Shown here in pieces: positions 8,601-39,590 of a stretch of DNA of 41,045 bases (positions within the stretch are counted from its first letter, which is position 1; every line of letters begins with the position of its first letter). The stretch spans positions 1-41,045 of the forward strand of contig JAYRVN010000330.1 of assembly GCA_041918535.1 (NCBI GenBank), given 5' to 3'. The notes beneath the pieces are model-generated. The model saw only the letters and a list, made by a program, of their open reading frames with translations. It was not told the DNA's origin and did not search any database. Origin of the DNA: Chloroflexota bacterium. GTDB taxonomy: Bacteria > Chloroflexota > Anaerolineae > Promineifilales > Promineifilaceae. Made by a program: the position numbers and the translations under genes.

Positions 8601-9149
8601 TAAGCCGTCAAGCAAAGTGATCTGGCAGGCAGCGTCGCCGTCGTTTTGTAACCAACCACTCTTGATAAACCCGAAACGATCGCCCGTGCGCCAGGCATAA
8701 CGCATGGTAAGCTGTAAGTCGTGGTTGACTTCCTCAAACACAAGCTTGTTGCCGTAGGCATTCTTGTAGAGGCTGCGCTCGCAATCATAAATGCCGGCAT
8801 ACCGCGGCGAAAATGGTTCCCATAGATGGGTATGGTCGTCTCGTGTTACCCGAATGATGGTCTTGCTGCCGGTGTGTTCACTGCCGGCGGTGATCTTGTC
8901 ATCCGTTTCGTAGGGGAAGAGCGCCGAATCGGCGTTTGCGCGACCGGCCGTCAGGCCGCCGGTGCTGGCGATGAAAAGCCAATGGTCAGCACTACTAACC
9001 ACACTCATGAAGAAGGGCGGCATCTGATCGGAGTGACGAAGGCGATAGTAACTCTCGCCGAAGATGCGGACAAATTCACCGGTAGTGTGAGAAACATTCA
9101 CCGAGATGGGCGTGTGGCCCAGGTAGATGGCGTTGTGGGGGTGAGTCAT
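5682..9149 (-). CDS. Large cytoplasmic glycoside phosphorylase candidate (GH94-clan-like; possibly GH149/GH161-type beta-1,3-glucan phosphorylase)
   Basis: 1155-aa ORF, no signal peptide. GNWRDIFQNWE (aa 471-481), RRHGDPSRPWNRF (442-454) and RPEWNDANN (652-660; Asp657 codon at 7179..7181) resemble the RD..Q, phosphate-site and catalytic xWND signatures of (alpha/alpha)6 inverting phosphorylases. Size and beta-1,3-glucan context fit. The coding call is confident; the family call is inference. Confidence 0.6.
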   Translation of the reverse strand: MTHPHNAIYLGHTPISVNVSHTTGEFVRIFGESYYRLRHSDQMPPFFMSVVSSADHWLFIASTGGLTAGRANADSALFPYETDDKITAGSEHTGSKTIIRVTRDDHTHLWEPFSPRYAGIYDCERSLYKNAYGNKLVFEEVNHDLQLTMRYAWRTGDRFGFIKSGWLQNDGDAACQITLLDGLQNLLPYGVTSAMQTSLSNLLHAYKRNELDPATGLGIFTLSATPTDRAEPSESLQATVAWQVGLDNSSFLLSSDQLDVFRRGLPLTPEYDVRGKAGAYLVSSAFTLSAGQTRAWHIVADVNQDSAAITRLICLLGEDRAAIDRQLEDDIAQGTADLINYVAAADGLQISADKSITTHHFANVLFNIMRGGVFAEGYTLDRSDLLAFIQARNRHVLNTFADWFAALPDQLTIGDLYARAAATHVPDLIRLCYEYLPLTFSRRHGDPSRPWNRFTINLKHPDGSPRLDYQGNWRDIFQNWEPLVQSFPAYIEGLIAKFLNATTADGYNPYRVTRDGVEWEVPDPNNLWANIGYWSDHQIIYLQKLLEIADQVYPGALSRLWNSAIFSYANVPYRQHPYQEMLADWSNTIDFDWESEQVTGEAVADMGADGRLLRDANGNVIHVTMLEKLLMLLLAKLVNLAPEGGIWMNTQRPEWNDANNALVGKGLSVVTVAYLRRFIAFWQAQLTGAEAVTFAVNTAVATLFDAVQTIFAEHQAYLETGFNAQARRAMLDNLGAVATAYRTTIYQARFPQAQAQITGQTLRDFLTLAQAYIEQTLRANRRSDGLYHAYNTLRLDENGATVENLYLMLEGQVAVLSSGMLTANDALTLLHSLRRSDLYRADQHTYMLYPNRVLPGFRQKNKVTAGLVAGSPWVAALTAGGDTRLLSQDDAGVYHFNGTFRNIHDVMRVLAALAQEPIYADLVAAERAFILELFERVFNHHQFTGRSGAFFAYEGLGSVYWHMVAKLLLATQECYTAAVSCGADTALTAALATAYHDIRQGLGFNKPPAVYGAFPTDPYSHTPAGGGARQPGMTGQVKEEILTRWGELGVAVRQGALHFAPHLLRSDEFLSETSTFTYIDTTGSHQTAPLPSRSLAFTLCQTPIIYTRGNRPSVEVVYADGLSQRIAGTYLDAPTARHIFDRDGLIRLVRVVTAI

Positions 9150-16840: not shown

Positions 16841-18286
16841 CTATTTCACTTCGTCAAAAACGGTTTGCAGGTCTTTGAGAAACGCGTCAATCTCCGCATT
16901 CAGGTCCAAATCGGGGGTGCTCTGAACTTTGGCGGCGAACGCGCTGTACACGTCGGTCGCTTTCAGGAAGTTGGGCATCCCAGATTCGTGGTTGGGAATG
17001 TCGGGGTAATTCAAGGCATTAACGAACACTTGCACATCGGCATTGGGGAAGTTTTCCTGGAACTTAGCCAGGGCATCTACTTGCAAGCTCGCCCGTCCGG
17101 GGAACGCCCCATATACCTGCAACAGGTCTGGCGCGAATTCGCCCAGCATCAGCATGTAGACCTCGAAAGCAGCGTCCGGGTTCTTGCTGGCTTTCAAAAT
17201 GCCGAACGTGTCGGCGTGCAGTTTCGCCGTGATATTGCCATCGTAGGAAGGTATGGCAGCCACGTCCCAGTTCACGCCCTCAAAGCAACAAGTGTACCAG
17301 GTGTGAATAGGGTTCATGGCAACCTTGCCGGAGCCAAAGGTGTTCCCCTGTGAGAGCAAGTCACTGTTCACGTAGTTGTCGTTGGGCCAAAAGTGGTCTT
17401 GCCACATGGCGTTGTAGACCCACGCCAACCCATCGCGCCACACCTGGGGCATCGTAGCGTTGCCCTCGGCATCCGCAAAGCTGCCCGCGCCAAAGAAGGT
17501 CAAATAGCCACGTATGTCGGTCCACATGGGATGGTAGCCAAACTGGGTGATATTGTCTGGGTCAAATCCGTCCATGGTAGCATCGTTGCCGTTGGCATCC
17601 ACGGTGAGGAATTTGGCCAATTCTTGCAGCTTGTCAAAAGTCCAGGCGTCGCCATCGGCGTAGGGCGCGCCCCACTCGTGCGGCGGGTAGGCCAAACCAG
17701 CTTCGTCAAACAAGTCTTTGTTGTACCAGAGGGCGGAAGGATAGACGGCAAAGGGAATGCCAACCTGTCCCTGACCTTCAAATTGATAGAAATCAATCAG
17801 GGCGGGATTGAAATCGCTCAGGTCTACGTTGTATTTCTCAATGTAGGGGGCCATATCCAGCCAGGCGCCTTCAAAACTGAACATACCGCGCACACCCACA
17901 GGCCCTACGATGTCGGGCGCATCGCCCGAAGCGATTTGGGTTTTGAGGACATCGAAGGCGGTTGCATTCTGGACGATATCCAAAACGAGTTTGTAACGAT
18001 CGCCGTATTTGGCGTTGAAGGCGGCAACGAAGGCCTCTTCTTTGGCGATTTCTTCGGGGTTACCGCCGGCGCCCAGGCCGACAAACCAACGAACTTCAAC
18101 CGGTCCGGCCGCAACGGGTTCGGCCACAGTGGGTTCCGCCGCAACGGGTTCCGCCACAGTGGGTTCCGCCGCAGCCGGTTCGGCCACAGTGGGTTCCGCG
18201 CTGCTATCGCTGCCACCGCAACCGACTATCAGTATGCCGGCTAGAGCCAGCAACACGATAAACAAAAAAATCCTTGACTGCTTCAT
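16841..18286 (-). CDS. ABC transporter extracellular sugar-binding lipoprotein (family 1 SBP)
   Basis: 481-aa ORF. Lipobox LIVGCGG, then a repetitive AEPTVAEPxA linker, then an SBP_bac_1-like body. First gene of the importer operon. Confidence 0.88.
   Translation of the reverse strand: MKQSRIFLFIVLLALAGILIVGCGGSDSSAEPTVAEPAAAEPTVAEPVAAEPTVAEPVAAGPVEVRWFVGLGAGGNPEEIAKEEAFVAAFNAKYGDRYKLVLDIVQNATAFDVLKTQIASGDAPDIVGPVGVRGMFSFEGAWLDMAPYIEKYNVDLSDFNPALIDFYQFEGQGQVGIPFAVYPSALWYNKDLFDEAGLAYPPHEWGAPYADGDAWTFDKLQELAKFLTVDANGNDATMDGFDPDNITQFGYHPMWTDIRGYLTFFGAGSFADAEGNATMPQVWRDGLAWVYNAMWQDHFWPNDNYVNSDLLSQGNTFGSGKVAMNPIHTWYTCCFEGVNWDVAAIPSYDGNITAKLHADTFGILKASKNPDAAFEVYMLMLGEFAPDLLQVYGAFPGRASLQVDALAKFQENFPNADVQVFVNALNYPDIPNHESGMPNFLKATDVYSAFAAKVQSTPDLDLNAEIDAFLKDLQTVFDEVK
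18107..18199 (-). repeat. About three tandem 30-nt coding repeats (AEPTVAEPxA linker of the binding protein)
   Basis: aa 30-60 read AEPTVAEPAA AEPTVAEPVA AEPTVAEPVA. The DNA shows repeated ggttc(g/c)gccacagtgggttccgccgca units, contiguous and in frame. Confidence 0.85.
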
Positions 18287-19511: not shown

Positions 19512-19600
19512 GCCTGTTTGCACGCCGTCGCTTGTCCTATTCACACCCAACCAACCCATCGGCCGAATTTTCTGCGGGGTGTCTTGGCGATGGGCGTTTT

Positions 19601-21353: not shown

Positions 21354-22127
21354 ATGCTCACCACGGATATGTATGAAGGGATGCTCGCCGAGACCGTCAG
21401 CCTGCCCGGCGCGAACGGCGATCTGATCAACGCCTACCTGGCCCGCCCGCTTGGCCCCGGCCCTTACCCCGGCATGGTCATCGTGCACCACATGCCCGGC
21501 TGGGATGAATGGTATCGTGAGACGACGCGCAAATTCGCCCAGCATGGCTATATCGCCCTCTCGCCCAACCTTTACTTCCGCGCCGGTCACGGATCGGCCG
21601 AAGATGTCGCCGCCCATGTGCGCGCTCAGGGCGGCATCGCCGACGAACAGGCCGTGGGCGACATAGCCGGCGCGCTGCGCCTGCTGCGCTCGCTGCCCAC
21701 CCTCAACGGCAAAGTCGGCGTCTTTGGCACCTGTTCCGGCGGCCGCCATGCTTATTTGGCCGCCTGCCGCGCGCCCGGCTTCGACGCCGTGGTGGATTGC
21801 TGGGGCGGGCGGGTGGTGATGCCGCCGGAGGCGCTGTCGGCCAATACGCCGGTCGCCCCTATTGACTATACGCAGGATTTGACCTGCCCCCTCCTGGGCC
21901 TGTTTGGCGCCGAAGACCGCAGCCCCACCCGCGAGCAGGTGGCCCAACACGAGGCCGCGCTCCAGCAATACGGGAAACCGTACGAGTTTCATGTGTACGA
22001 GGGCGCGGGACACGGCTTTTTCTATTATGAATGGCCGAGCTACCGGCAGGCGCAAGCCATGGACGGCTGGGGCAAGATTTGGCGCTTTCTGGCCCACCAC
22101 CTGCACACCCCCGCCCCCTTTGCTTGA
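21354..22127 (+). CDS. Dienelactone hydrolase family protein
   Basis: This is the in-frame part of ORF 20895..22127, starting at ATG 21354 behind AAGGAG. MLTTDMYEGMLAETVSLPG..., HHMPGWDEW, nucleophile elbow GVFGTCSGG (Cys type), C-terminal GAGHGF. Confidence 0.8.
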   Translation: MLTTDMYEGMLAETVSLPGANGDLINAYLARPLGPGPYPGMVIVHHMPGWDEWYRETTRKFAQHGYIALSPNLYFRAGHGSAEDVAAHVRAQGGIADEQAVGDIAGALRLLRSLPTLNGKVGVFGTCSGGRHAYLAACRAPGFDAVVDCWGGRVVMPPEALSANTPVAPIDYTQDLTCPLLGLFGAEDRSPTREQVAQHEAALQQYGKPYEFHVYEGAGHGFFYYEWPSYRQAQAMDGWGKIWRFLAHHLHTPAPFA

Positions 22128-22164
22128 TACGCCCAGCCCATCTTACTATAGGAGGAGTGTCGCT

Positions 22165-22443
22165 ATGTGTACCATGATTACCCGCAGCGTGCCCATCGAA
22201 GGCAGCGGCAAAGGGGCAGCCGGCTGGTTTGCCCTGAACCAGGCCCACGTCTCGTATGAGCATCCCTTTGGCGCCACGCTGGAATATGCGCTGAATATGG
22301 ACTTTGTCAATCCGGCGCAAGGCTTGGGGGCGCGCGTGGCCGTCGAGTTGAGCGCCGACGCCGCCCGCGCCCTGGTGGAGACCATCCTGGCGGTGCTGGC
22401 CCAGGCCGAACGGGAAGGCCACCTGGCCCCCAGGTCGGGTTAG
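22165..22443 (+). CDS. Small conserved hypothetical protein (92 aa)
   Basis: ATG 22165 with GGAGGAG 7 nt upstream. The N-terminus MCTMITRSVPIEGSGKGAAGWF resembles, from memory only, a small DUF-type family seen in high-GC Gram-positive bacteria and Chloroflexi. It is the in-frame tail of track ORF 21904..22443. Confidence 0.6.
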   Translation: MCTMITRSVPIEGSGKGAAGWFALNQAHVSYEHPFGATLEYALNMDFVNPAQGLGARVAVELSADAARALVETILAVLAQAEREGHLAPRSG

Positions 22444-22501
22444 CGCCTTCGCGCCGGAAGCGCTATCCTCGCCGCGCCACATCCAGTTGGGAGAAATCGT
22501 T

Positions 22502-23473
22502 ATGCATTATCGTCGTTTTGGACGCACAGGCTGGCAAGTCTCTGAGATCGGTTATGGCATGTGGGGCATGGGCGGCTGGAGCGGGGCCGACGACCAGACC
22601 TCCCTGCAAGCCCTCCAGCGCGCCGTCGAGCTGGGCTGCAACTTCTTCGACACCGCCTGGGGCTATGGCGCGGGCCATAGCGAAGGCTTGCTCGGCCAAT
22701 TGGTGCGGGCTAATCCCGAGCGCAAGCTGTATACCGCCACCAAGATTCCGCCCAAGAATTTTCAATGGCCCAGCCGCCGCGAATTCAGCCTGGATGATTG
22801 CTTCCCGCCCGACCACATCCAGGCCTACGTCCACCAAAGTCTGGCTAACGCCGGGCTGCCCGCCTTCGATCTGATCCAGTTCCACACCTGGGAAGACGGC
22901 TGGCTGCGCGACGAGCGCTGGGTTCACGCCGTCAGCGACCTGCGCGCCCAGGGTTTGTTCCAGGCTGTGGGCATCAGCCTGAACCGGTGGGAGCCGTGGA
23001 ACGGCATTCAGGCGGTGCGCAGCGGCTTGATTGACGCCGTGCAAGTGATCTACAACATTTTCGACCAGAACCCGGAGGATGAACTGTTCCCGGCCTGCCT
23101 GGCGCACGACGTGGCCGTGATCGCCCGCGTGCCCTTCGATGAAGGCACATTGACGGGGACGCTGACGCCGGCTAGCCGTTGGCCGGACGGGGATTGGCGC
23201 AACAGCTACTTTGTGCCGGAAAACCTGGCCGCCAGCGTGGCCCGCGCCGAGGCGCTGCGCCCGCTCATCCCGCCCGGCCTGACCATGCCGGAGCTGGCTC
23301 TGCGTTTTATTTTGAACCACCGCGCCGTCAGTACGATTATTCCGGGCATGCGCACGCCCGGCCATGTTGCAGCTAACCTGGCGTGCAGCGACCAGGGGCC
23401 GCTGCCGGCCGAGCTGCAGGACCAACTGCGCGCCCACCGCTGGGAACGCCAACCCACGGCCTGGTCACAGTAA
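22502..23473 (+). CDS. Aldo/keto reductase
   Basis: ORF 22487..23473, likely start ATG 22502 (MHYRRFGRTGWQVSEIGYGMWGMGGW). FDTAWGYGAGHSE and a C-terminal IPGMRTPGHVAANL motif are typical of AKR proteins. Confidence 0.85.
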   Translation: MHYRRFGRTGWQVSEIGYGMWGMGGWSGADDQTSLQALQRAVELGCNFFDTAWGYGAGHSEGLLGQLVRANPERKLYTATKIPPKNFQWPSRREFSLDDCFPPDHIQAYVHQSLANAGLPAFDLIQFHTWEDGWLRDERWVHAVSDLRAQGLFQAVGISLNRWEPWNGIQAVRSGLIDAVQVIYNIFDQNPEDELFPACLAHDVAVIARVPFDEGTLTGTLTPASRWPDGDWRNSYFVPENLAASVARAEALRPLIPPGLTMPELALRFILNHRAVSTIIPGMRTPGHVAANLACSDQGPLPAELQDQLRAHRWERQPTAWSQ

Positions 23474-23612
23474 CCTGGACGCGCCGGGGCGATTGGGTGA
23501 ATCGCGCGGCGGGCGGGTGTGGGGGGCGGGGGCGATTTGCAAAATCGCCCTACAGACTGCGCGGGCTTGATTTTGGAGGGGTTGGGGGAAGAAGTGTGCC
23601 GGCGTGGCGAGC

Positions 23613-26600
23613 TTAATGGCCGGCGGCCAGCCGCTCCAGCAGGAGCAGCAGTTCAGTGGCTAGCTGGTAATGTAAGGCCGGATCGTCAGCTTGCGGCAGG
23701 GCGCGGCTGCCGGCCAGAATTGCCTCCAGCCCCGCAACAAATAGAGGCGGCCAGCCGGCCTGTTTGCCACCGGCGACGAGCGCACGGGCCGCCGCGTGAT
23801 CGTTCCGGCGTAGGTGGGTGAGCAATTGATCCGCCACTTCGCCGGCGCCGCCCCGCGCGTAGCCGCCGTCGCGGCGGTAGGCCAGATAGGCGTCGCGGGC
23901 TTGCCGCCAGGCCGCCCCCGCCGCCGCCGCGTTCCCGCCCGCCGCCTCGATGTTGTGCAGAATGGCGAACGTCTTCCACGGCTCGGCCGCGTGGCCGAAG
24001 GGCCGAGCGCATTCAATCGCCCGCTCAATCTCGCGCCGCGCCTCGTCCAGCCGCCCCAGCTTCACTAGCGTGCCCGCGATGTTGCTGCGCCGCAGCCCTT
24101 CCTTGGCCTGGTCACCCAACCGGACCGCAATATCGGCGGCCTGCCGATAAAACGTCACCGCCTCCTCCAGCCGCCCCGCCCCGGCGTACAGATTGCCCAG
24201 CTCGCCCAAACTGCTGGCCTGCCCCGCCGCGTTGCCCTGCTGCACCTCGATCGCCAGCGACTGCCGGTAGGCCCGCTCCGCCGCCTCAAACTGCCCGGCC
24301 TGGCGGTGCACCCTGCCGATCTGGTGCCACAGCGTCGCCACGCCCGCCGGCTCGCCCAGCCGCTCAAACACGTCGCGCGCCGCCGCATACGCCGCCAGCG
24401 CCTCGGCGTAGCGCCGCTGGTACTGCCGCACCGTTCCCAACTGTGTGCGCCCCACCGCCACGTCGCGTGCGTCGCCGCGCGCCTCGTCCAGCGCGATGGC
24501 CCGCTCATACAGCGCCGCCGCGTCGTCCAGCCGCCCCAGAGCCGTCAGGCAATCCGCCTGCTCCGTCAGCGCTGCCGACGCCATGCCCGCCGCGTCCTTA
24601 TCTCCCTGCGCCGCCAGCGCCTCAAAGCGCCGCTGCGCTTCGCCCAGCGGCTCCAGCGCCGCCCCCGCCTGCCCGCCCGTCCGCAGCACCCGCCCCAGCA
24701 AGATATGCGCCACGCCGATGTCATAGGCCGCGCCGGGGTAAGCCGCCTCGCCCGCCGCCAGCGCCCGCTGCCGCAGCGCCTCGGCTGCCGCCAGCGCCCC
24801 GCGCCCGTCACCCTGCCCCAGCCTGCGCTCAAGCGCCAGCCGCTCATGCTCAAACCGGGCATGCCCCCACTCGCCCAGCTTCCCGCTCGCCTCTTCCCGC
24901 GCCGCGGCCGCCCGCGCCAGCGCCGCCGGCCGCCCCAGCTCGGCCAGCAGTTGCTCGATGCGGCCCGCCACAGCCACCACGTCCTCCGGCGCGGCGCGAT
25001 CCGGCAGCCACTCCAGCAGCGCCAGCAGGTTGGGCAGCTCCAGCAGTGTCAACTGCCGCGCCATCTGCGCATCCTGGAACAGCTGCTGGGACAGGAAGTC
25101 CACCAGTTGCCGCATGGCCGCCGCCCAGCGCTCCGTCAGCGCCGCCAGCGCCGCCGCGTCCAGGCCCCGCCGCAGGTACGCCCCCAGCGCCGGGTCCACC
25201 CGCAGATGGGCATAGGGCATTTCTTCAGCCAAGCCCACATCAATCAATCGGATTGCCAGCGCACGCGCTACTTCGACATCCACCTCCATGACCATCGCCA
25301 AGATCGACAGTTGCGCCCCACCCTGAAAAACCGCCAGCGCTTTGACCTGCTCACGCATTTCTGTGGTCAGCCGCTGCAGCGACAGCTCCAGGCTGGCGTA
25401 GAGCGAATTCTCGCGGTCGCCGGGGTGGGCCGCGTCCTGCGCCGCCATGATGGCCGTCAGGTTGGCCGTCGTCGCCCTCACGCCCAGCCGCGCCACGTCG
25501 CGCGCCAGCAGCACCAGCGCCCGCGCGTGCCGGTTGACGGCGTTCACCAGCTCCAGCACCTCCTGCGGCGTGGCCCCCGGGTCGGTCGGGGCGGGCTGCC
25601 AGCCGGCGTTGGCCATCACCCGCTCCACCAGCGCCACGGCGTCGCGCTCGCTCAGCGCCCCCAGTTCCACCCGCTGCCGCCCGCCGTCAAAGGGGGCCGG
25701 CAGCGCCTCGCGGCTGGTGAACACAATCCGCGCCCGCCCGTCCGCATCCAGCAGCGCCCGGCACAGATCGAACAGTTCGGCCGTCGGGGCGGGTTTGAAA
25801 CCCGCCCCTACATCTGCGCCTGGGGCCGGCAGGGCTGACTCCACATGGTCCAACACGATCAGCGTGGCGTCATCGCGCAAGGCGCGGGCCACCGGCTGCA
25901 AGGCCGCCGCCAGCGTCGGGTAGTGCGCCACGCTGTACTTGTCTCCGTCCGGCAGCAGTTGATGCCCCAGACTGTCCAGCACGGCGCGGGCGTCGGCCAC
26001 ATTCTCCAGCGAGACAAAGGCCGCCCGCCCGAAGCGGCCGCTGCGCGCCAGCCAGCGCGCCAGCTCCACCGCCAGCGTCGTCTTGCCCGCCCCGCCCGTC
26101 CCGCGCACCACCGCGTAGCGCTCTTGCGCCAGCAGCCGCTCCAGATACAGCAGTTCGCGGCTGCGGCCGATGAAGGTGTGCGGCGGCGTCTCCGGCAGCG
26201 CCCCCAGCGCCAGTTTGCGCCGTTCTTTTTGCAGGTCGCGCACGCGCCCCGGCAGCAAGCGGCTGAACAACCGGGGGTCGGCCGCATCCTGATACAGCAC
26301 CGGCACAAACCAGTCGCGCAGATGCAACTCGCCCGCCCCCATCACCTTGCCGCGGAAACTGTCCCCGGCCAGCGCCTGCTGGCCCGCCAGATGGGCCGCG
26401 CCCACGCGCCCGCCTGCCGCCAGCGCCCCGTAAAACGCCTCCACATAGCGGCGCGCCGTCTCCACCAGCACGCTGTAGCTCATGGCCGCCACCGAACTGA
26501 CCCCCTCTTGCAGCAGGCGCGTGGCTACCGAGTTCAGGTCGTCCTCGGTCAGCGAACTCTGGCACGCCTCCAGAAAGACCAGCGGGATGCCGTAATCGCG

Positions 26601-27977
26601 CATAATCGCGGCCAGCCGGTCGGCGTGGACGAGCCGGCTGCGTCGCGGGCCGGGCTTGTCGGCGTCTTGCGGCGCTTCAAACAGCAGCGCGCCCAGCCCC
26701 TGACGCCGGTCATAGACGCCGTGGCCGTCGAAATGCACCACGTCAAAGGGGTCGCCCGCCTGGTTGGCCTGTTGCAACGCTTGTTCCAGGGCGGGCAGCG
26801 TCGGCGGGTGCAGCACCGTCAGCGCGGCCAGGCTGCCGAGATTCTCCACGGCGCTGACCAGCGGCAGGGCGCTGGCGCGGTGGTCTATGTAGCCCACGGG
26901 CGTCTGGCCGTCCTCAGCCAGTTCAGGGCGCGGGCTGAGCAGCAAAATACGGATGGGCGGCTCAGCCGGCGCTACCGGCCGCGGCTGGCGGTTGGGCAGG
27001 CGGCGGCGGAGGCTGACGGGGTTAGCGCCGTGCAGCAGGTAGCCGCCCTCGTCGCCCAGCAGTTCCCAGGGCAGCGCCAGCAGCTCGGTGGCGGCGCGAT
27101 GCACGGCGGTCTGCGCGGCGGCGTCGGCCCCGTCGGGGGCGTCGGGGTCTACCTGCACGGAGAAGCGGCGGGCGTGGCCGGCGGGGCTGCCCTGCCAGGC
27201 GGTCAGCGCCGCGCGCGCGGCGGGCGCGCCCAGCGCCGCCTCGAACAGCGCCCGGCCCCAGGCCGGCAACTGCGCCTCGGCGCGGCGGGCGCGCTGGGCA
27301 AAGACGCCCACCGGCCACAGGGCGAACTCTTCCAAATACCAGCGAATGTCCTCCAGCTCAATCGGCCCCAGCGGCGCGGTGACCGTGTAGCGTTTGCTCT
27401 CGACCTGCCGCGCCGCCGAGTCAGCCGGTTGGTAGATGAGCGTGGCGGTGGCCTGGGCGCGCTGCGCGCCGTTCAGTTCCACCAGGCGCGGGTCGCGCAG
27501 TTCCAGGATCAGATCGTCAACGGGCGCGGCGGGCGGCTCCGGGGCGGGCGCGGCGTCTTCCGGCAGTTGCTCGCCCAGAGCGGCCAAAAGCGCGGGCAAG
27601 GCTTCATCCAGCCGGGCCGGGTCCACCCGGACGGCCAGCGGCTCTTTGTCCTCGTCGAAGTAAATCCACAGGGCGGACGGCTCGACGCCGGGCAGCAGCA
27701 GCGGGATAAGGCGGAAATCGGCGCGCTGCTGTTCAACCACCGCCGCGCGGCGGATTTCGTCGCGCACCCATTTGGAGTTGAAGGTCTGCGGGCCGAGGAC
27801 GGCAATGACGGCGCGGGCCGCGTCTATGGCGGCTTCGATTTCCGGCTTGAGATGGTCGCCGCCGCGCAGGTTGCGCGAGTCGGCCCAGACGCTCAGGCCG
27901 TGGCCTTCGAGGGCGCGGCGCAACTGCATGACAAAGGCATCATCGGCGGTGGCGTGGGAGATGAAAATAGGGGCCAT
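23613..27977 (-). CDS. TIR - CHAT (caspase-like protease) - STAND P-loop NTPase (NB-ARC-like) - TPR multidomain protein, 1454 aa
   Basis: Track ORF 23613..28241. The start is trimmed to ATG 27977 (MAPIFISHATADD), because the 88-aa extension overlaps the upstream gene and is low complexity. Domain motifs are listed in the four sub-features below. Confidence 0.85.
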   Translation of the reverse strand: MAPIFISHATADDAFVMQLRRALEGHGLSVWADSRNLRGGDHLKPEIEAAIDAARAVIAVLGPQTFNSKWVRDEIRRAAVVEQQRADFRLIPLLLPGVEPSALWIYFDEDKEPLAVRVDPARLDEALPALLAALGEQLPEDAAPAPEPPAAPVDDLILELRDPRLVELNGAQRAQATATLIYQPADSAARQVESKRYTVTAPLGPIELEDIRWYLEEFALWPVGVFAQRARRAEAQLPAWGRALFEAALGAPAARAALTAWQGSPAGHARRFSVQVDPDAPDGADAAAQTAVHRAATELLALPWELLGDEGGYLLHGANPVSLRRRLPNRQPRPVAPAEPPIRILLLSPRPELAEDGQTPVGYIDHRASALPLVSAVENLGSLAALTVLHPPTLPALEQALQQANQAGDPFDVVHFDGHGVYDRRQGLGALLFEAPQDADKPGPRRSRLVHADRLAAIMRDYGIPLVFLEACQSSLTEDDLNSVATRLLQEGVSSVAAMSYSVLVETARRYVEAFYGALAAGGRVGAAHLAGQQALAGDSFRGKVMGAGELHLRDWFVPVLYQDAADPRLFSRLLPGRVRDLQKERRKLALGALPETPPHTFIGRSRELLYLERLLAQERYAVVRGTGGAGKTTLAVELARWLARSGRFGRAAFVSLENVADARAVLDSLGHQLLPDGDKYSVAHYPTLAAALQPVARALRDDATLIVLDHVESALPAPGADVGAGFKPAPTAELFDLCRALLDADGRARIVFTSREALPAPFDGGRQRVELGALSERDAVALVERVMANAGWQPAPTDPGATPQEVLELVNAVNRHARALVLLARDVARLGVRATTANLTAIMAAQDAAHPGDRENSLYASLELSLQRLTTEMREQVKALAVFQGGAQLSILAMVMEVDVEVARALAIRLIDVGLAEEMPYAHLRVDPALGAYLRRGLDAAALAALTERWAAAMRQLVDFLSQQLFQDAQMARQLTLLELPNLLALLEWLPDRAAPEDVVAVAGRIEQLLAELGRPAALARAAAAREEASGKLGEWGHARFEHERLALERRLGQGDGRGALAAAEALRQRALAAGEAAYPGAAYDIGVAHILLGRVLRTGGQAGAALEPLGEAQRRFEALAAQGDKDAAGMASAALTEQADCLTALGRLDDAAALYERAIALDEARGDARDVAVGRTQLGTVRQYQRRYAEALAAYAAARDVFERLGEPAGVATLWHQIGRVHRQAGQFEAAERAYRQSLAIEVQQGNAAGQASSLGELGNLYAGAGRLEEAVTFYRQAADIAVRLGDQAKEGLRRSNIAGTLVKLGRLDEARREIERAIECARPFGHAAEPWKTFAILHNIEAAGGNAAAAGAAWRQARDAYLAYRRDGGYARGGAGEVADQLLTHLRRNDHAAARALVAGGKQAGWPPLFVAGLEAILAGSRALPQADDPALHYQLATELLLLLERLAAGH
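23862..24884 (-). other. TPR repeat array (putative sensor) of the 1454-aa protein
   Basis: Repeated ~34-40-aa units with the A..Y..AL pattern, e.g. LGRLDDAAALYERAIAL, QRRYAEALAAYAAARDVFERLG, AGQFEAAERAYRQSLAI, AGRLEEAVTFYRQAADIAVRLG, LGRLDEARREIERAIEC. Confidence 0.75.
25242..26180 (-). other. STAND / NB-ARC-like NTPase module of the 1454-aa protein
   Basis: Walker A GTGGAGKTT (Lys codon 26082..26084), Walker B TLIVLDHVE, followed by a helical/winged-helix-like region. Confidence 0.75.
26292..26960 (-). other. CHAT protease core of the 1454-aa protein
   Basis: VVHFDGHGVY (His codon 26721..26723) and PLVFLEACQS (Cys codon 26562..26564) form a caspase-like His/Cys dyad. An upstream ALPWELLGDEGGYLL segment is typical of CHAT N-terminal regions. 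Confidence 0.75.
27567..27977 (-). other. TIR domain of the 1454-aa protein
   Basis: IFISHATADDAF...LSVWADSRNLRGGDHLKPEIEAAIDAARAVIAVLGPQTFNSKWVRDEI. The Glu of the S.W(V/C)..E motif is present (mature E74, codon 27756..27758, GAA). Confidence 0.8.
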
Positions 27978-28074
27978 GGCAACATCCAACGACAAAACGG
28001 ATAACGGCGCGCCTGTATTATCGCATACAATCTGGGGAAGGAAAGCGAAATACAACGTTGCGCGGCGGGGGATG

Positions 28075-28992
28075 CTATTCGGGTAGACGGCCTTTGGCGC
28101 GCAGGGTGTGGAGGAGGCTGGGGAAACCGACGCGCTCGACCAGGTGGTGGAGATGGCGGAAGCCGTCGCCATAGATGGGATCGCTGTTGACGGCGATGCG
28201 CCGGGCGTAGAAGAGCGTCTCATGTGTGGCGCGCTCGACATAATAACGGTGGGCGAGAAGTTCGCAGAAGCCCTCTTCCTCTTTTTCCGGCAGGCCGAGA
28301 AGCGTTTGCTGGGCTAACCAGACGTGGGCCAGTTCGTGCAAGCCGACGCCTTCAAAGAGGGGGCGCGGCAAGCCGGACAGGATAGCCACTTGTTGCACGA
28401 CGGCGCGAATCGGCCGATCCCGGTGTGTCGTCCGCGCGCTGAGGGTCAGGCCGAGGCGGCCCGGTCGGCGGCCGGCCAGACGAGCAAAGGCGGCGCGCTC
28501 CGGCAAGGTCAGCTTGAAACGCCAATGGCTAAGGGCTACTCCCTGCCCGGCCGCCCATTGCGCCAACTCTTCCAGGATCGGCCGGGCCTGCTCGACAGCA
28601 TCTATGGCCTGCGCCAGACAGTTCTCGCAGGTCACGCTGCCGGCGCGCCGGCGGCTACGGCCGGGCGGCGGCGCGGTCAGACGGCCGCAATATTCGCAGT
28701 GGGGATATTGGCGGGCGTGCTCGACACAGGTGGTCACGCCCCAATAGTCTATATGGTAGGTTGCCAGCAGCGGGCGGCCGCACAGGGCGCAGGTAGGGGG
28801 AGTGGGATCGAGCATTAGTCGCTGGGGGTTGCGTGGAGGGGAGCGTTTTTCGGCCGAATCACCCTTATTCCCTGCCCACGCGCCGCCGCCCAGGCCCGCG
28901 TTGACATGGTAGTGCGGAGTGTACCCGATACGGGCGACGTCTTCAAACTCCGATCGCGCCGCTGGCGCGACAAGGCTTGTACTGCGGAACAT
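28075..28992 (-). CDS. DA1-like zinc metallopeptidase with N-terminal LIM-like double zinc finger
   Basis: CxxC/CxxH/CxxC/CxxC pattern (CALCG...CVEH...CEYCG...CENC), then GVGLHELAHVWLAQQTLLGLPEKEEEGFCELLAHRYYVE. This parallels the plant DA1 peptidase signature HEMMHAWL...EEGICQVLAH. The start is uncertain: ATG 28992 (leaderless-type context) or ATG 28815 (MLDPTPPTCALCG). Confidence 0.7.
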   Translation of the reverse strand: MFRSTSLVAPAARSEFEDVARIGYTPHYHVNAGLGGGAWAGNKGDSAEKRSPPRNPQRLMLDPTPPTCALCGRPLLATYHIDYWGVTTCVEHARQYPHCEYCGRLTAPPPGRSRRRAGSVTCENCLAQAIDAVEQARPILEELAQWAAGQGVALSHWRFKLTLPERAAFARLAGRRPGRLGLTLSARTTHRDRPIRAVVQQVAILSGLPRPLFEGVGLHELAHVWLAQQTLLGLPEKEEEGFCELLAHRYYVERATHETLFYARRIAVNSDPIYGDGFRHLHHLVERVGFPSLLHTLRAKGRLPE

Positions 28993-37749: not shown

Positions 37750-39590
37750 GCTTCTCCATCGGTTCGGCCGGCATCAACGTCGGGCCGCGCGGCGCCCTGG
37801 AAAGCTTCGGCGAAGAGGCGGAAACGCGCCCCCTGGATGCGCGCATCTTGTGGCGCTTGCTGGCCTTTGTGCGCCCGCATTGGCAACGCATGGCGCTGGC
37901 CCTGATCCTGACGTTGGCCGGCTCGGCCCTGACCCTGCTGACCCCCTACCTGCTGAAGGTGGCGATTGATCAGCATATCGTCAACGGCGATGCGCGCGGG
38001 CTGGCGCGCACGGCGGGGCAACTGCTGGCGGCCTTTGCCGGCATCTACCTGACCGCAGCCGGACAGCAGTACCTGCTCGGCTGGGTGGGGCAGCAGGTGC
38101 TGGCGACGCTGCGCGCGCAGTTGTTTGAGCATTTGCAGCGCCTATCCCTGGGCTATCACGATACCCACATCGTCGGCGTGACCATTTCGCGGGTGATCAA
38201 CGATGTGGCCGTCATCAATGAACTGCTCTCGCAAGGGGTGGTGCAACTGGTGGGGGACAGCCTGGTGTTGATGGGCATCGTGGGCATCATGCTGAGCATG
38301 AGTCCGCGCCTGGCGCTGCTGACCTTCCTCACCCTGCCGCTGATGGCGCTGGCAACGATTCTGTTCGCGCGGCGGGCGCAGGTAGCCTTTCGCCAAACGC
38401 GTCGGCGCATCGCCGAAGTGGTAGGCGACCTGGCGGAAAATATCGCCGGCATCCGCGTCATCCAGGCCTTCGCCCAGGAAGCGGCGGCGCGGGAGCGTTT
38501 TGACGAGGTGAATCGGGCTAACCGCGACGCCTATGTCGAGGCAATGTCCTTGTCGTTCATCTTTTTGCCCTCGGTGGAGTTTCTGGGCATGTTGGCGACG
38601 GCGATTGTGTTGTGGTTTGGCGGGCGCTGGGTGGCGCAGGGGGAATTGACACTGGGGGTGATGGTGGCCTTTTTGGCCTATGTCAGCCGCTTCTTCGGGC
38701 CGATCCAGGAACTAAGCCAGCTTTATACCACCTTGCAGGCGGCAGTGGCGGGCGGCGAGCAGGTGTTGCGCCTGTTGGACACGCCGCCGGAAGTGCAGGA
38801 CGCGCCTGAGGCAGGCGCTATGCCGCCGATTCAAGGGCGCATTGACTTGCAAGGGGTGTCGTTCGCCTACCGCGACGGCGACCCGGTGTTGCGCAACGTG
38901 GAGCTGACGATTGAGCCGGGCCAAATGGTGGCGTTAGTGGGGCCGACAGGGGCGGGCAAGACATCCATTGCCAATCTGGTGGCGCGTTTTTATGATGTGA
39001 CGGCGGGGGCGGTGTTAATTGACGGGGTGGATGTGCGAACGGTGCGACAGCGTTCGTTGCGGGCGCAGATGGGGTTGGTGCCGCAAGAGCCATTTCTGTT
39101 TGCGGGGACGGTGGCGGAGAATATCGGATTCGGCCGAATCCACGCCTCCGACGCCGAACTCACCCAGGCCGCCCAGGTTGCCAACGCCGACGCCTTCATC
39201 CGCGCCCTCCCCGACGGCTACCAGACCGCCGTCCTCGAAGGCGGCGTCAACCTCTCCCTCGGCCAGCGCCAGCTCATCTGCATCGCCCGCGCCGTCCTGG
39301 CCGACCCGCGCATCCTCATCCTCGACGAAGCCACTGCCAGTGTAGACACTCTGACCGAAGCGCTCATTCAAGCCGCCCTGGAGCGCCTGTTAGCGCAGCG
39401 CACCTCGCTGGTCATCGCCCACCGCCTCAGCACCGTGCGCCACGCCGACCTGATTTGCGTGCTGCAAGACGGCCAGATTGTAGCCCGCGGCCGCCATGAC
39501 GACCTCCTGGCCCAGGGCGGCCTCTACCGCCAACTCTACGAGCAACAATTCCTCCAGCGCGAAGAGCCAACCGCCAGGCCCCTTGATTGA
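37746..39590 (+). CDS. ABC exporter fused TMD-NBD subunit (canonical Walker B partner)
   Basis: 614-aa ORF. Walker A GPTGAGKTS and Walker B ILILDEATASVD. The signature is non-canonical: LSLGQRQL. Confidence 0.88.
   Translation: MSFSIGSAGINVGPRGALESFGEEAETRPLDARILWRLLAFVRPHWQRMALALILTLAGSALTLLTPYLLKVAIDQHIVNGDARGLARTAGQLLAAFAGIYLTAAGQQYLLGWVGQQVLATLRAQLFEHLQRLSLGYHDTHIVGVTISRVINDVAVINELLSQGVVQLVGDSLVLMGIVGIMLSMSPRLALLTFLTLPLMALATILFARRAQVAFRQTRRRIAEVVGDLAENIAGIRVIQAFAQEAAARERFDEVNRANRDAYVEAMSLSFIFLPSVEFLGMLATAIVLWFGGRWVAQGELTLGVMVAFLAYVSRFFGPIQELSQLYTTLQAAVAGGEQVLRLLDTPPEVQDAPEAGAMPPIQGRIDLQGVSFAYRDGDPVLRNVELTIEPGQMVALVGPTGAGKTSIANLVARFYDVTAGAVLIDGVDVRTVRQRSLRAQMGLVPQEPFLFAGTVAENIGFGRIHASDAELTQAAQVANADAFIRALPDGYQTAVLEGGVNLSLGQRQLICIARAVLADPRILILDEATASVDTLTEALIQAALERLLAQRTSLVIAHRLSTVRHADLICVLQDGQIVARGRHDDLLAQGGLYRQLYEQQFLQREEPTARPLD
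39526..39582 (+). repeat. Direct repeat, left copy (3' end of the ABC exporter gene)
   Basis: accgccaactctacgagcaacaattcctccagcgcgaagagcc... matches 40032..40086. The first 43 nt match at 40 of 43 positions by manual alignment. Confidence 0.75.

Follow-up and report, generated by a model that had tools for sequence, protein, structure and literature searches.

A predicted bacterial NLR-like protein carrying TIR and CHAT domains on one STAND-TPR chain represents a large, patchily distributed family

The gene described here is read on the minus strand at 23613..27977 of a 41,045-nucleotide stretch of Chloroflexota DNA (the window), and its complete coding sequence specifies 1454 amino acids and a stop codon. 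A TIR domain, a CHAT caspase-fold domain, a STAND NTPase and a TPR array follow one another along the protein. Judged from its sequence, it would be a bacterial relative of the NOD-like immune receptors of animals and plants, with two predicted cell-killing enzymes on a single chain. The reading that we favour, with moderate confidence, is that of a single-chain NLR-like (STAND) conflict sensor of the Avs/NLR type, activated by oligomerisation, with two parallel outputs, and belonging to a large family that has spread horizontally.

The open reading frame spans 23613..28241 at its longest in the ORF listing. The start given in the original prediction, the ATG at 27977 (MAPIFISH...), is the correct one, as the N-termini of all the homologues agree with it (20 homologues aligned); it lies 97 nt past the stop of the upstream gene (28075-28992). 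A start at 28241 was rejected, since it would overlap that gene and all homologues begin at the MxxxIFISH position, and plus-strand shadow frames (e.g. 25845-28004) were set aside as artefacts of the high GC content. Direct reading of the sequence revealed a hairpin, GGGCGATTT-TGC-AAATCGCCC, at 23530..23550, 63 nt 3' of the stop codon, which is possibly the end of the transcript; no T-run comes after it and the terminator scan did not call it. The hairpin and the domains described below lie on the minus strand.

The TIR domain occupies aa 1-135 (27573..27977), as delimited by Pfam TIR_2, phmmer and Foldseek. The TIR_2 profile scored 82.7 bits at aa 4-105, far over its cut-off of 28, and the predicted catalytic glutamate, E74, is encoded at 27756-27758, in agreement with the residue initially proposed. 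In the phmmer alignments E74 coincides with the W-x-x-x-E glutamate of PdTIR, AbTIR, Cat1 and BtpA/TcpB, which we take to be the catalytic residue in those proteins. The flavodoxin-like fold of the AlphaFold model matched AbTir (7uxu, TM 0.74), the SARM1 TIR (TM 0.76) and also SPARTA TIRs in Foldseek; sequence and model together point to a TIR of the NADase/cyclase type. The domain is followed at aa 136-152 (27522..27572; pLDDT and alignment) by a proline-rich linker modelled with low confidence (pLDDT <50 at aa 139-144), which contains a conserved 'LPxD' motif whose aspartate, D141, shows no variation in the 20 homologues though the surrounding stretch varies.

Between linker and protease lies a beta-meander and helical module, aa 153-296 (27090..27521), defined by secondary structure and a pLDDT of 73-96. 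This module has no Pfam match of its own and is kept in the TIR-less relatives, which begin just upstream of a 'PVEELxLxL' motif. The CHAT caspase-fold domain extends over aa 297-570 (26268..27089; Pfam and Foldseek), with a Pfam score of 70.6 bits at aa 297-536 (cut-off 24); the NCBIfam EACC1-type caspase model reached 15.7 bits against a cut-off of 140. Its fold matches in Foldseek were SAVED-CHAT 8tl0 (the top one, E = 4e-8), DdvA 8rot, separase and Csx29 7y84. The putative dyad assigned earlier to this domain, H419 (HFDGHG; codon 26721-26723) and C472 (EACQS; codon 26562-26564), lies at the positions given, is invariant in the 20 homologues and sits in motifs that resemble the H-G and A-C motifs of the CHAT family. 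In the model H419 comes after strand 413-417 and C472 closes strand 466-473, so that each is found at the C-terminal end of a beta-strand, as the caspase fold predicts. A profile search of the PDB for a solved CHAT on which to map both residues gave no match. The domain is predicted from sequence and model to be a cysteine protease.

The STAND NOD module, aa 600-1000 (24978..26180), was recognised by motifs read directly, by Pfam and by Foldseek. Three features distinguish STAND NTPases: an hhGRExE motif before the P-loop, a sensor-1 arginine and, within the helical domain, a GxP-type motif. Their counterparts here are the hhGRExE-type motif FIGRSRELLYLE at aa 602-613, ahead of the P-loop, the invariant R756 of a sensor-1-like FTSRE, and the GxP-type site VNRHARAL (GHPRAL in relatives); helical and winged-helix parts come after the sensor-1-like motif. 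The P-loop switch that had been anticipated was found where expected, with Walker A GGAGKTT (K632, codon 26082-26084), Walker B LIVLDHVE (D710, codon 25848-25850) and matches to STAND folds. In Pfam the P-loop region (aa 611-790) scored 32.0 bits with AAA_25 (cut-off 27) and also matched nSTAND3; NACHT (24.8 bits) and NB-ARC (22.8 bits) fell slightly under their cut-offs, and at the level of the modelled fold the NOD appears AP-ATPase/NB-ARC-like. The model shows an NBD-helical-winged-helix fold followed by a repeat sensor (pLDDT 84.6), and the C-terminal half matched first 6mfv (PH0952 STAND-TPR, E = 2e-12) and then Apaf-1, CED-4 and the NRC/ZAR1 resistosomes in Foldseek.

The remainder of the protein, aa 1001-1454 (23616..24977), is a helical region and TPR superhelix according to Pfam, PDB matches and the model, and is the presumed sensor. 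The long TPR array of the original prediction is supported by TPR_12, 1, 2, 8, 7 and 10, all of them over their cut-offs at aa ~1114-1330 (TPR_12, 74.2 bits). The region resembles LGN/Pins-type TPRs in its PDB matches, is all-helical in the model with a pLDDT mostly >85, and contains the DNA repeats at multiples of 120 nt, which would fit a repeat unit of ~40 aa. That the whole could be an ordinary signalling or scaffolding STAND of the MalT/AfsR type, in which TIR and CHAT merely mediate protein interactions, is extremely improbable: a Pfam scan of the protein detected no DNA-binding or other output domain, its catalytic Glu, His and Cys are under strong purifying selection across phyla, and its phyletic distribution is patchy. 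Such a role would agree with the housekeeping neighbours of the gene and with PH0952, the closest solved match to the whole module, being a STAND-TPR protein of unknown role. A recent survey of STAND proteins treats a clade as defence-associated when it has immune effector domains, and has non-defence clades interspersed with the defence ones (PMC13581612).

The architecture, regarded at the outset as unusual, is not an oddity. Full-length relatives, about 1450 aa long and 46-63% identical, are present in at least 542 of 185,579 species-representative genomes from >15 phyla (~0.3%, a lower bound), and the CHAT-NOD core alone gave 976 clusters at 50% identity with E <= 1e-30. Of the 119 closest cluster representatives, 118 share the four modules and retain all four residues, and E74, H419, C472, K632 and D710 are invariant in the 20 homologues, which come from different phyla. 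The family occurs in Acidobacteriota, Chloroflexota, Cyanobacteria, Actinomycetota, Firmicutes, several classes of Proteobacteria, Planctomycetota, Verrucomicrobiota, Myxococcota, KSB1 and others, its hosts being mostly soil Acidobacteriota MAGs of unknown morphology. The presence of the gene is patchy and cross-phylum, as is typical of conflict genes. The profiles score, no misalignment of the predicted catalytic residues came to light, and the gene is not a core gene kept in synteny by all relatives; the opposite of each had been named at the outset as grounds for refuting the prediction.

The effectors proved to be modular when 70 representatives at 50% identity were compared. The NTPase is universal in the family (K632 in 70/70, D710 in 69/70). 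The TIR is absent in 21 representatives (~30%, an upper bound); of the 49 that have one, 47 retain its Glu. Thirteen of the 70 (~19%) have lost the CHAT dyad, and five of these are also TIR-less; the dyad is intact in 15 of the 21 TIR-less representatives, and eight TIR-bearing ones with a dead dyad keep the TIR Glu. One TIR-less member, P0222, carries instead a C-terminal PNP_UDP_1 domain (85.9 bits), of the phosphorylase superfamily that is counted among the effector domains of bacterial NLR and conflict systems (PMC8195603; 10.1101/2020.01.06.895854). Dyad loss is scattered over the tree with 10 inferred changes, and TIR and dyad were lost independently and repeatedly within the family. Because of losses at these frequencies, TIR and CHAT look separable, add-ons to a CHAT-NOD-TPR chassis and not an obligate pair, as far as sequence comparison goes. 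Therefore, not every member needs proteolysis, and the role of the CHAT domain may in part be structural. The dual output of the original prediction is plausible, but the pairing of both effectors is not obligate.

These counts bear on whether the two enzymes could act in series. In a cascade in cis resembling type IV Thoeris, an ADPR-derived signal, made by the TIR after the STAND switch had fired, would bind the aa 153-296 module or the CHAT and turn on the protease, which would be the sole killer. The idea draws on type IV Thoeris itself, where the partner of a TIR making N7-cADPR is a caspase-like protease with many protein substrates (10.1101/2024.10.24.620036), on SAVED-CHAT, the top structural match, which shows that a CHAT can be nucleotide-activated, and on the aa 153-296 module, conserved and confidently folded with no assigned function. 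We consider it unlikely, given that the TIR-less representatives with an intact dyad and the TIR-bearing ones with a dead dyad show that either enzyme persists where its partner is missing or dead, and so speak against an obligate relay. Moreover, Pfam and PADLOC scans of the protein gave no match to a known nucleotide-sensor domain, be it SAVED, SLOG, Macro or another, and its protease is a CHAT, not one of the Thoeris IV type.

Alternatively, the CHAT would be a regulatory or self-processing protease, cutting for example the LPxD linker to license the TIR, or an oligomerisation platform, and the output would be NAD+ cleavage by the TIR. An Asp that does not vary within a variable, disordered linker suits self-processing, and a CHAT protease of type III-B CRISPR systems does carry out specific processing within a cascade (10.1101/2023.06.23.546230); yet the cleavage site is purely hypothetical, and TIR-less members with an intact dyad are common (15/70), so that the CHAT must target something besides the TIR linker. 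A structural CHAT is suggested by the retention of the fold where the dyad is lost, in scattered events, and is countered by the intact dyad of 118/119 closest relatives. The TIR Glu, which is almost never lost when a TIR is present, speaks for the TIR as the real output. On balance we find such an arrangement quite unlikely.

The gene stands alone in its neighbourhood. The upstream gene, DA1-like, had been considered as a part of the system and was rejected as a partner: a tblastn search found no homologue of it at 85 related loci, and none of 80 DA1-like metagenome loci carries the TIR-CHAT-STAND-TPR family. All-against-all clustering of flanking ORFs brought together nothing except families that are promiscuous (histidine kinases, ABC ATPases) and cases of synteny inside a lineage, and no vWA-MoxR, NPCBM or other partner genes, nor EAD adaptor domains, are associated with the family. 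With no conserved neighbour, this is therefore a single-gene system. At the related loci the adjacent gene on either side was scanned, 114 ORFs in total; these are mostly metabolic or housekeeping and show no defence enrichment, PADLOC and Pfam retrieving from them only generic kinase matches (PD-T4-6 models) and housekeeping families. Within the window there are no tRNA genes, CRISPR-like arrays, bounding repeats or cas genes. Phage carriage is essentially nil, with one distant IMG/VR match, and plasmids gave only matches of <32% identity, none over 80% of the protein. A metagenome scan with the DA1-like neighbour for an empty insertion site retrieved no relative closer than 44% identity.

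The GC content of the gene is 72.1%, and 74.9% in the 24-25 kb bin, so that the earlier spot value of ~75% was roughly right; its GC3 of 0.865 is the top one among the 19 genes of the window. The octamer TCGGCCGA, over-represented in the window with 29 copies against 1.3 expected, does not occur inside the gene, as had been pointed out. The highest GC3 and the missing octamer are weak evidence of recent horizontal transfer into the Chloroflexota host genome, because the 6.8 kb gap free of TCGGCCGA loses significance when every gap is taken into account (P = 0.14), Ala, Arg and Gly are abundant in the protein, and its closest relatives are from Chloroflexota.

Mean pairwise column identity is 0.60 in the TPR region and 0.66-0.69 in the catalytic domains. 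A presumed sensor as conserved as the enzymes does not resemble a fast-evolving arms-race receptor and could fit an endogenous ligand. The protein could then be not antiviral but a switch for regulated cell death, development or kin conflict in environmentally complex bacteria, often of filamentous or social habit, and would respond to an endogenous stress or damage signal, in line with predictions of a 'bacterial apoptosis machinery'. Its hosts include Thiothrix, Leucothrix, Ca. Parabeggiatoa, Nodosilinea, Paractinoplanes, Caldilineaceae/Anaerolineae and Myxococcales, and STAND, caspase and TIR proteins have been tied to a multicellular habit (PMC7159879, PMC8195603); against this, most hosts are the soil MAGs whose morphology is unknown. 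Across phyla the sensor is evenly and highly conserved, the housekeeping flanks carry no defence-island signal, and eight acidobacterial loci have the same neighbour gene, a hint of vertical retention in that lineage. Nevertheless, a scattered presence in only ~0.3% of species genomes (a lower bound) is not that of a lineage-defining developmental gene, and effector swapping (TIR, none, PNP_UDP) is a hallmark of immune STANDs. We regard a non-antiviral switch as an improbable reading, which differs from the favoured one in trigger and purpose, not in mechanism.

In the favoured reading, that of a conflict sensor, the AP-ATPase/NB-ARC-like NOD would rest closed and nucleotide-bound, holding the N-terminal enzymes apart. 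A ligand, most likely a conserved protein of an invader (phage) or a conserved component of the host that infection has altered, would bind the TPR superhelix and allow the NOD to exchange its nucleotide and oligomerise, in the manner of Apaf-1, plant resistosomes and Avs proteins. Oligomerisation induced by the target is the accepted model of Avs activation. The oligomer would gather the TIR domains into composite NAD+-cleaving sites and the CHAT domains into a proximity that permits proteolysis, and the parallel outputs, NAD+ loss or ADPR-type products together with proteolysis, would arrest or kill the cell, presumably as abortive infection. Parallel rather than serial outputs are preferred because TIR and dyad have each been lost independently and repeatedly. 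A more speculative proposal, to which we give limited credence, is that one STAND switch drives two independent death enzymes, which would make this the first bacterial NLR to do so, and that the conserved TPR, instead of detecting a variable phage protein, guards a universal cellular component. In a variant of this guard proposal the TIR product would activate the fused CHAT in cis, combining the logic of Thoeris IV with an apoptosome-like switch.

No system model of PADLOC (2023) or NCBIfam matches the protein beyond its TIR and TPR parts. The literature searched gives no description of TIR plus CHAT on one STAND chain, only general statements; the architecture family is not described there, though its building blocks and logic are known. 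TIR (TIR2) and CHAT are frequent N-terminal domains of NLRs in multicellular bacteria (10.1101/2020.01.06.895854), and AP-ATPases have been described with an N-terminal TIR (PMC7159879, PMC8195603) and fused to TPRs and caspases (PMC8195603). The proteins grouped under bacterial apoptosis or NTP-dependent conflict share these building blocks and the predicted logic (PMC7159879, PMC8195603), but are described with one effector per chain, and the EAD adaptor domains and vWA-MoxR/NPCBM partners of the bacterial apoptosis systems are absent from the present family.

The Avs-type logic of a STAND with TPRs, part of the original prediction, is supported by architecture and folds: as in Avs and other immune STANDs, one large chain has its effector at the N-terminus and a TPR-like sensor at the C-terminus, with the STAND NTPase in between. 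TIR domains are among the known effectors of Avs, and their occurrence in AVAST/Avs proteins is mentioned (10.64898/2025.12.03.692087). Membership in a described Avs family was not sustained, no Avs model of PADLOC (2023), a library that lacks newer Avs families (PMC13581612), matching at E <= 0.1. The family differs from Avs in its two tandem enzymatic effectors instead of one, its lack of defence-island context and a sensor unusually conserved across phyla.

Type IV Thoeris (TIR + ThsE) likewise unites a TIR of catalytic type and a caspase-fold protease in one immune unit. There, however, two genes of one operon are joined by diffusible N7-cADPR, and ThsE is described as caspase-like, not CHAT, with neither STAND switch nor TPR sensor, whereas here the domains are fused and independently lost. 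The type III CRISPR CHATs (Csx29/TPR-CHAT 'Craspase', SAVED-CHAT) share the CHAT fold and a protease controlled by an upstream sensor; in the present protein control is predicted to come from the STAND NTPase and not from gRAMP or cyclic oligoadenylate, the window lacks CRISPR/cas, and no conserved substrate gene adjoins the family's loci. In the type III-E protein Csx29, which is associated with gRAMP/Cas7-11 and a CRISPR array, the TPR is N-terminal to the CHAT and there is no NTPase, so that both the order and the STAND NTPase set the two apart. The nearest NOD folds appear to be those of Apaf-1/CED-4 and plant NLRs, the modelled homology being at domain level only. The order TIR-NOD-repeats is that of plant TNLs, and an Apaf-1-like switch coupled to a caspase-fold protease recalls the Apaf-1/CED-4 apoptosome, where the protease is recruited by a CARD domain instead of being fused. 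Unlike apoptosome and resistosomes, the sensor is a TPR and not WD40 or LRR, and TIR and protease are on one chain.

Bacterial STAND/NLR-like proteins are recognised ancestors or analogues of the innate immune receptors of animals and plants, and no enzyme classes have closer ties to regulated cell death across kingdoms than TIR NADases and caspase-like proteases. The family joins a TIR and a caspase-fold protease on one ATP-switch chain, and since it is missing from PADLOC 2023, annotation with that library would overlook it. It is abundant and diverse, and offers natural variants in which the TIR is missing, the CHAT dyad is dead or PNP_UDP replaces the TIR. Therefore, it is a ready-made system in which to ask how two effectors are coordinated by a single sensor, whether signalling from TIR products to caspase-fold proteases exists beyond Thoeris IV, and what is recognised by a sensor so highly conserved across phyla.

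The minus strand of the window contains an open reading frame at 23613-28241, for which the biologically sensible start is read as ATG 27977 (product beginning MAPIFISHATADD), since this codon lies 97 nt after the stop of the preceding gene (28075-28992) and homologues across many phyla have their N-termini at the corresponding position. The gene so delimited (23613-27977) encodes 1454 amino acids; the plus-strand ORFs overlapping it are high-GC shadows. Pfam profiles place a TIR_2 domain at aa 4-105 (82.7 bits, cut-off 28), a CHAT domain at aa 297-536 (70.6 bits, cut-off 24) and a P-loop region at aa 611-790, where AAA_25 scores 32 bits, above its cut-off, NACHT (24.8 bits) and NB-ARC (22.8 bits) fall slightly under theirs, and nSTAND3 is weaker. 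Several TPR models match aa ~1114-1330, TPR_12 reaching 74.2 bits. The four-module TIR, CHAT, STAND and TPR protein of the original prediction is confirmed, and E74, H419 (HFDGHG), C472 (EACQS), K632 (GGAGKTT) and D710 (LIVLDHVE) all lie where they had been placed. A hairpin of 9 perfectly paired bp and a 3-nt loop (GGGCGATTT-TGC-AAATCGCCC), with no T-run after it, occurs on the minus strand at 23530-23550, 63 nt past the stop codon, within the 139-bp convergent intergenic region that separates the gene from an aldo-keto reductase gene.

In phmmer alignments against PDB sequences E74 falls on the W-x-x-x-E Glu of PdTIR, AbTIR, Cat1 and BtpA/TcpB, the catalytic residue of these TIR NADases. The AlphaFold2 model of aa 1-600 (pLDDT 75.6) matches SAVED-CHAT (8tl0), the CHAT-containing anti-sigma factor DdvA, separase and Csx29, and its TIR part separately matches the TIR domains of AbTir, SARM1 and SPARTA. 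H419 and C472 are each located in this model at the C-terminal end of a core β-strand, as in caspase-fold enzymes; the sequence-profile search gave no residue-level alignment of the two to a solved CHAT. The two are probable caspase-fold catalytic positions. For the model of aa 583-1454 (pLDDT 84.6) the best structural match is the STAND-TPR protein PH0952 (6mfv), followed by Apaf-1, CED-4 and the plant NRC/ZAR1 resistosomes, and its C-terminal part matches TPRs of the LGN/Pins type. Direct reading of the sequence places the STAND motif FIGRSRELLYLE ahead of the P-loop and also reveals the FTSRE motif, whose R756 is invariant among the homologues compared; the GxP-type motif reads NRHARAL here, versus GHPRAL in relatives. 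The linker joining the TIR to the rest of the protein (aa 136-152) is disordered and, apart from a conserved LPxD motif, variable; D141 of this motif (codon 27555-27557, minus strand) is invariant and might serve for processing or as a structural cap.

The architecture had been regarded as unusual, and the searches do not bear this out. When 185,579 species were scanned, each through a single genome, at least 542 genomes proved to encode a relative, and a search of 5.8 billion proteins returned 1680 matches. The best 120 of these are all of ~1450 aa, with 54-63% identity and, in all but one, 94-100% query coverage; nearly all share the TIR, CHAT, NTPase and TPR Pfam set, the protein P0057 being without TIR models, and the only names they carry are 'tetratricopeptide repeat protein', 'TIR domain-containing protein' or 'CHAT domain-containing protein'. 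Among the best 80 genomes the relatives are full-length (46-62% identity), and the hosts comprise many Acidobacteriota, Chloroflexota (Caldilineaceae, Anaerolineae), Cyanobacteria (Nodosilinea), Actinomycetota (Paractinoplanes), Firmicutes (Heliomicrobium), Gamma-, Alpha- and 'Delta'-proteobacteria (Thiothrix, Leucothrix, Ca. Parabeggiatoa, Methylococcaceae, Accumulibacter, Beijerinckiaceae, Myxococcales), as well as Planctomycetota, Verrucomicrobiota, Bacteroidota, KSB1, Nitrospirota, Gemmatimonadota and others. With the CHAT-NOD core (aa 140-1060; NOD, the STAND P-loop NTPase module) an exhaustive HMMER search of 1.84 billion 50%-identity representatives recovered 976 proteins at E <= 1e-30. 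The chain is conserved to a remarkably even degree over its length (mean pairwise column identity 0.66 for TIR, 0.69 for CHAT, 0.66 for the nucleotide-binding domain and 0.60 for TPR), the lone drop being to 0.3-0.45 at aa ~1361-1420. Two full-length paralogues occur on two contigs (loci L039 and L041) of one bin, the Ca. Aminicenantes MAG LacPavin_0920_SED2_MAG_46_26.

Modularity was scored at key positions in 70 near-full-length 50%-identity representatives. The Walker A Lys (K632) is present in all 70 and the Walker B Asp (D710) in 69. The TIR domain is present in 49, of which 47 keep the Glu, and absent from 21, an upper bound because a few may be truncated gene calls; several TIR-less proteins clearly begin immediately ahead of a PVEELxLxL motif. 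The CHAT His-Cys dyad is intact in 57 of the 70, and has been lost in eight representatives with a TIR and five without. On a rough neighbour-joining tree both TIR absence and dyad loss are scattered, requiring 17 and 10 Fitch changes respectively, counts that are indicative only because the tree is star-like. Among the 119 closest relatives, 118 keep all four scored residues. Other modules occur at the ends: the TIR-less P0222 (1662 aa) carries a C-terminal PNP_UDP_1 phosphorylase-superfamily domain (85.9 bits), a class that published accounts list as an effector in bacterial NLRs and conflict systems (PMC8195603; 10.1101/2020.01.06.895854), and P0229 (1624 aa) has a CHAT dyad inactivated by H-to-R and C-to-G changes and an unrelated 320-aa N-terminus, in which the Pfam scan gave no match, nor did it in the C-terminal extension of P0172 (1712 aa; 210 residues scanned). 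The picture obtained from these sequences is that of a constant CHAT-NOD-TPR chassis with a predicted always-active NTPase, to which a nucleotide-processing effector, usually a TIR, would be added or removed, and whose CHAT protease can apparently be inactivated with the fold retained.

The best-supported reading of such a protein is that of a putative NLR/Avs-type switch. The TPR superhelix would take up a ligand, nucleotide exchange in the NOD would be followed by oligomerisation, and the TIR, through a composite NAD+ site, and the CHAT protease would be switched on by proximity, leading to cell arrest or death. Since each enzyme has been lost independently within the family, TIR and CHAT would preferentially be two parallel outputs. 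The same losses count against an obligate TIR-to-CHAT relay of the kind of type IV Thoeris, in which TIR-to-caspase coupling runs via two genes (10.1101/2024.10.24.620036), and against a CHAT present solely for processing the TIR, both being possible in the majority that carries the two enzymes.

The gene is a stand-alone unit, flanked by the convergent aldo-keto reductase gene and by the gene of a 305-aa DA1-like zinc metallopeptidase (28075-28992, minus strand; Pfam 51.3 bits); beyond these come ABC exporters and a P-type ATPase in one direction and a beta-glucan utilisation cluster in the other. The role suggested for the DA1-like gene in the original prediction was rejected: no homologue of it exists in the 85 family loci searched, and the family is found in 0 of 80 DA1-like metagenome loci. 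The peptidase itself, with a HELAH motif that fits HExxH preceded by LIM-like CxxC zinc-finger repeats, resembles the plant DA1 peptidase and has 91 relatives confirmed in a metagenome scan (best 44% identity). The beta-glucan cluster comprises two GH3 and two GH16 enzymes, a sugar ABC transporter, six CBM11 repeats with Calx-beta and a LacI regulator, and encloses a 1155-aa ORF without Pfam match (5682-9149, minus strand). A 30-nt unit is repeated in tandem (3.1 copies, 93% matches) at 18108-18199, near the 5' end of a solute-binding-protein gene (16841-18286, minus strand), where it probably forms a repetitive linker. Clustering of all flanking ORFs from the family loci gave nothing common except promiscuous kinases, ABC ATPases and some within-Acidobacteria synteny; the 114 nearest ORFs are metabolic or housekeeping and, generic Ser/Thr kinases excepted, without defence-system signal. 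This lack of defence-island context, together with a sensor conserved to an evenly high level from phylum to phylum, is consistent with a trigger that may be an endogenous or guarded host component instead of a phage protein, and the role may be one in non-viral cell death.

Phage contigs virtually do not carry the family, the only relative on a virus-labelled contig being a distant CHAT-NOD protein (L086:8001-10325, IMGVR_UViG_3300035659_003157; 27% identity over aa 209-950). Plasmid matches are all below 32% identity and none spans 80% of the protein, and the window was found to contain neither tRNA genes nor CRISPR-like arrays nor bounding repeats. The gene has the highest GC (72.1%) and GC3 (0.865) among the window's 19 genes. 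As had been noticed, it contains no copy of TCGGCCGA. The window has 29 copies of this palindromic octamer (76-83, 19559-19566, 28410-28417 and 39130-39137 among others) versus 1.3 expected from shuffles, 0 of 100 shuffles exceeding 5, and the octamer resembles a highly iterated palindrome of genome-wide extent. The longest interval between copies (21601-28410, 6.8 kb) covers the gene and the aldo-keto reductase gene and has P = 0.14 once account is taken of every gap. Because of this value, the protein composition (19% Ala, 10% Arg) and nearest relatives that are Chloroflexota, recent horizontal transfer into the host genome is no more than weakly suggested by the GC and the missing octamer.

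Computational work has described bacterial STAND/NLR-like proteins whose N-terminal effectors are TIR or caspase/CHAT and whose sensors are TPRs (PMC7159879, PMC8195603, 10.1101/2020.01.06.895854); for the Avs families there are experimental descriptions as well (PMC13581612), and CHAT proteases are at work in type III CRISPR systems (10.1101/2023.06.23.546230). The literature search found no published description of TIR and CHAT on one STAND chain, related papers giving general statements only; PADLOC matches are confined to the TIR and TPR parts, and NCBIfam has no model for the family. Hence the protein is not placed in any named Avs, Thoeris or Craspase family. The term 'Avs-type' holds for the STAND/TPR switch logic but not for membership of a described Avs family; of the original interpretation, the reading of the domain logic stands, as does the immune role as a candidate, whereas the rarity, the upstream gene and the Avs membership fell away. 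The kind of protein is already known, and the pairing of TIR and CHAT on one STAND chain is the new part. Another effector combination on a STAND will not astonish the specialist, but this one belongs to a large and strongly conserved family that lacks annotation and has many natural variants, through which the coordination of TIR and caspase-fold effectors by one NLR-like switch can be addressed directly.
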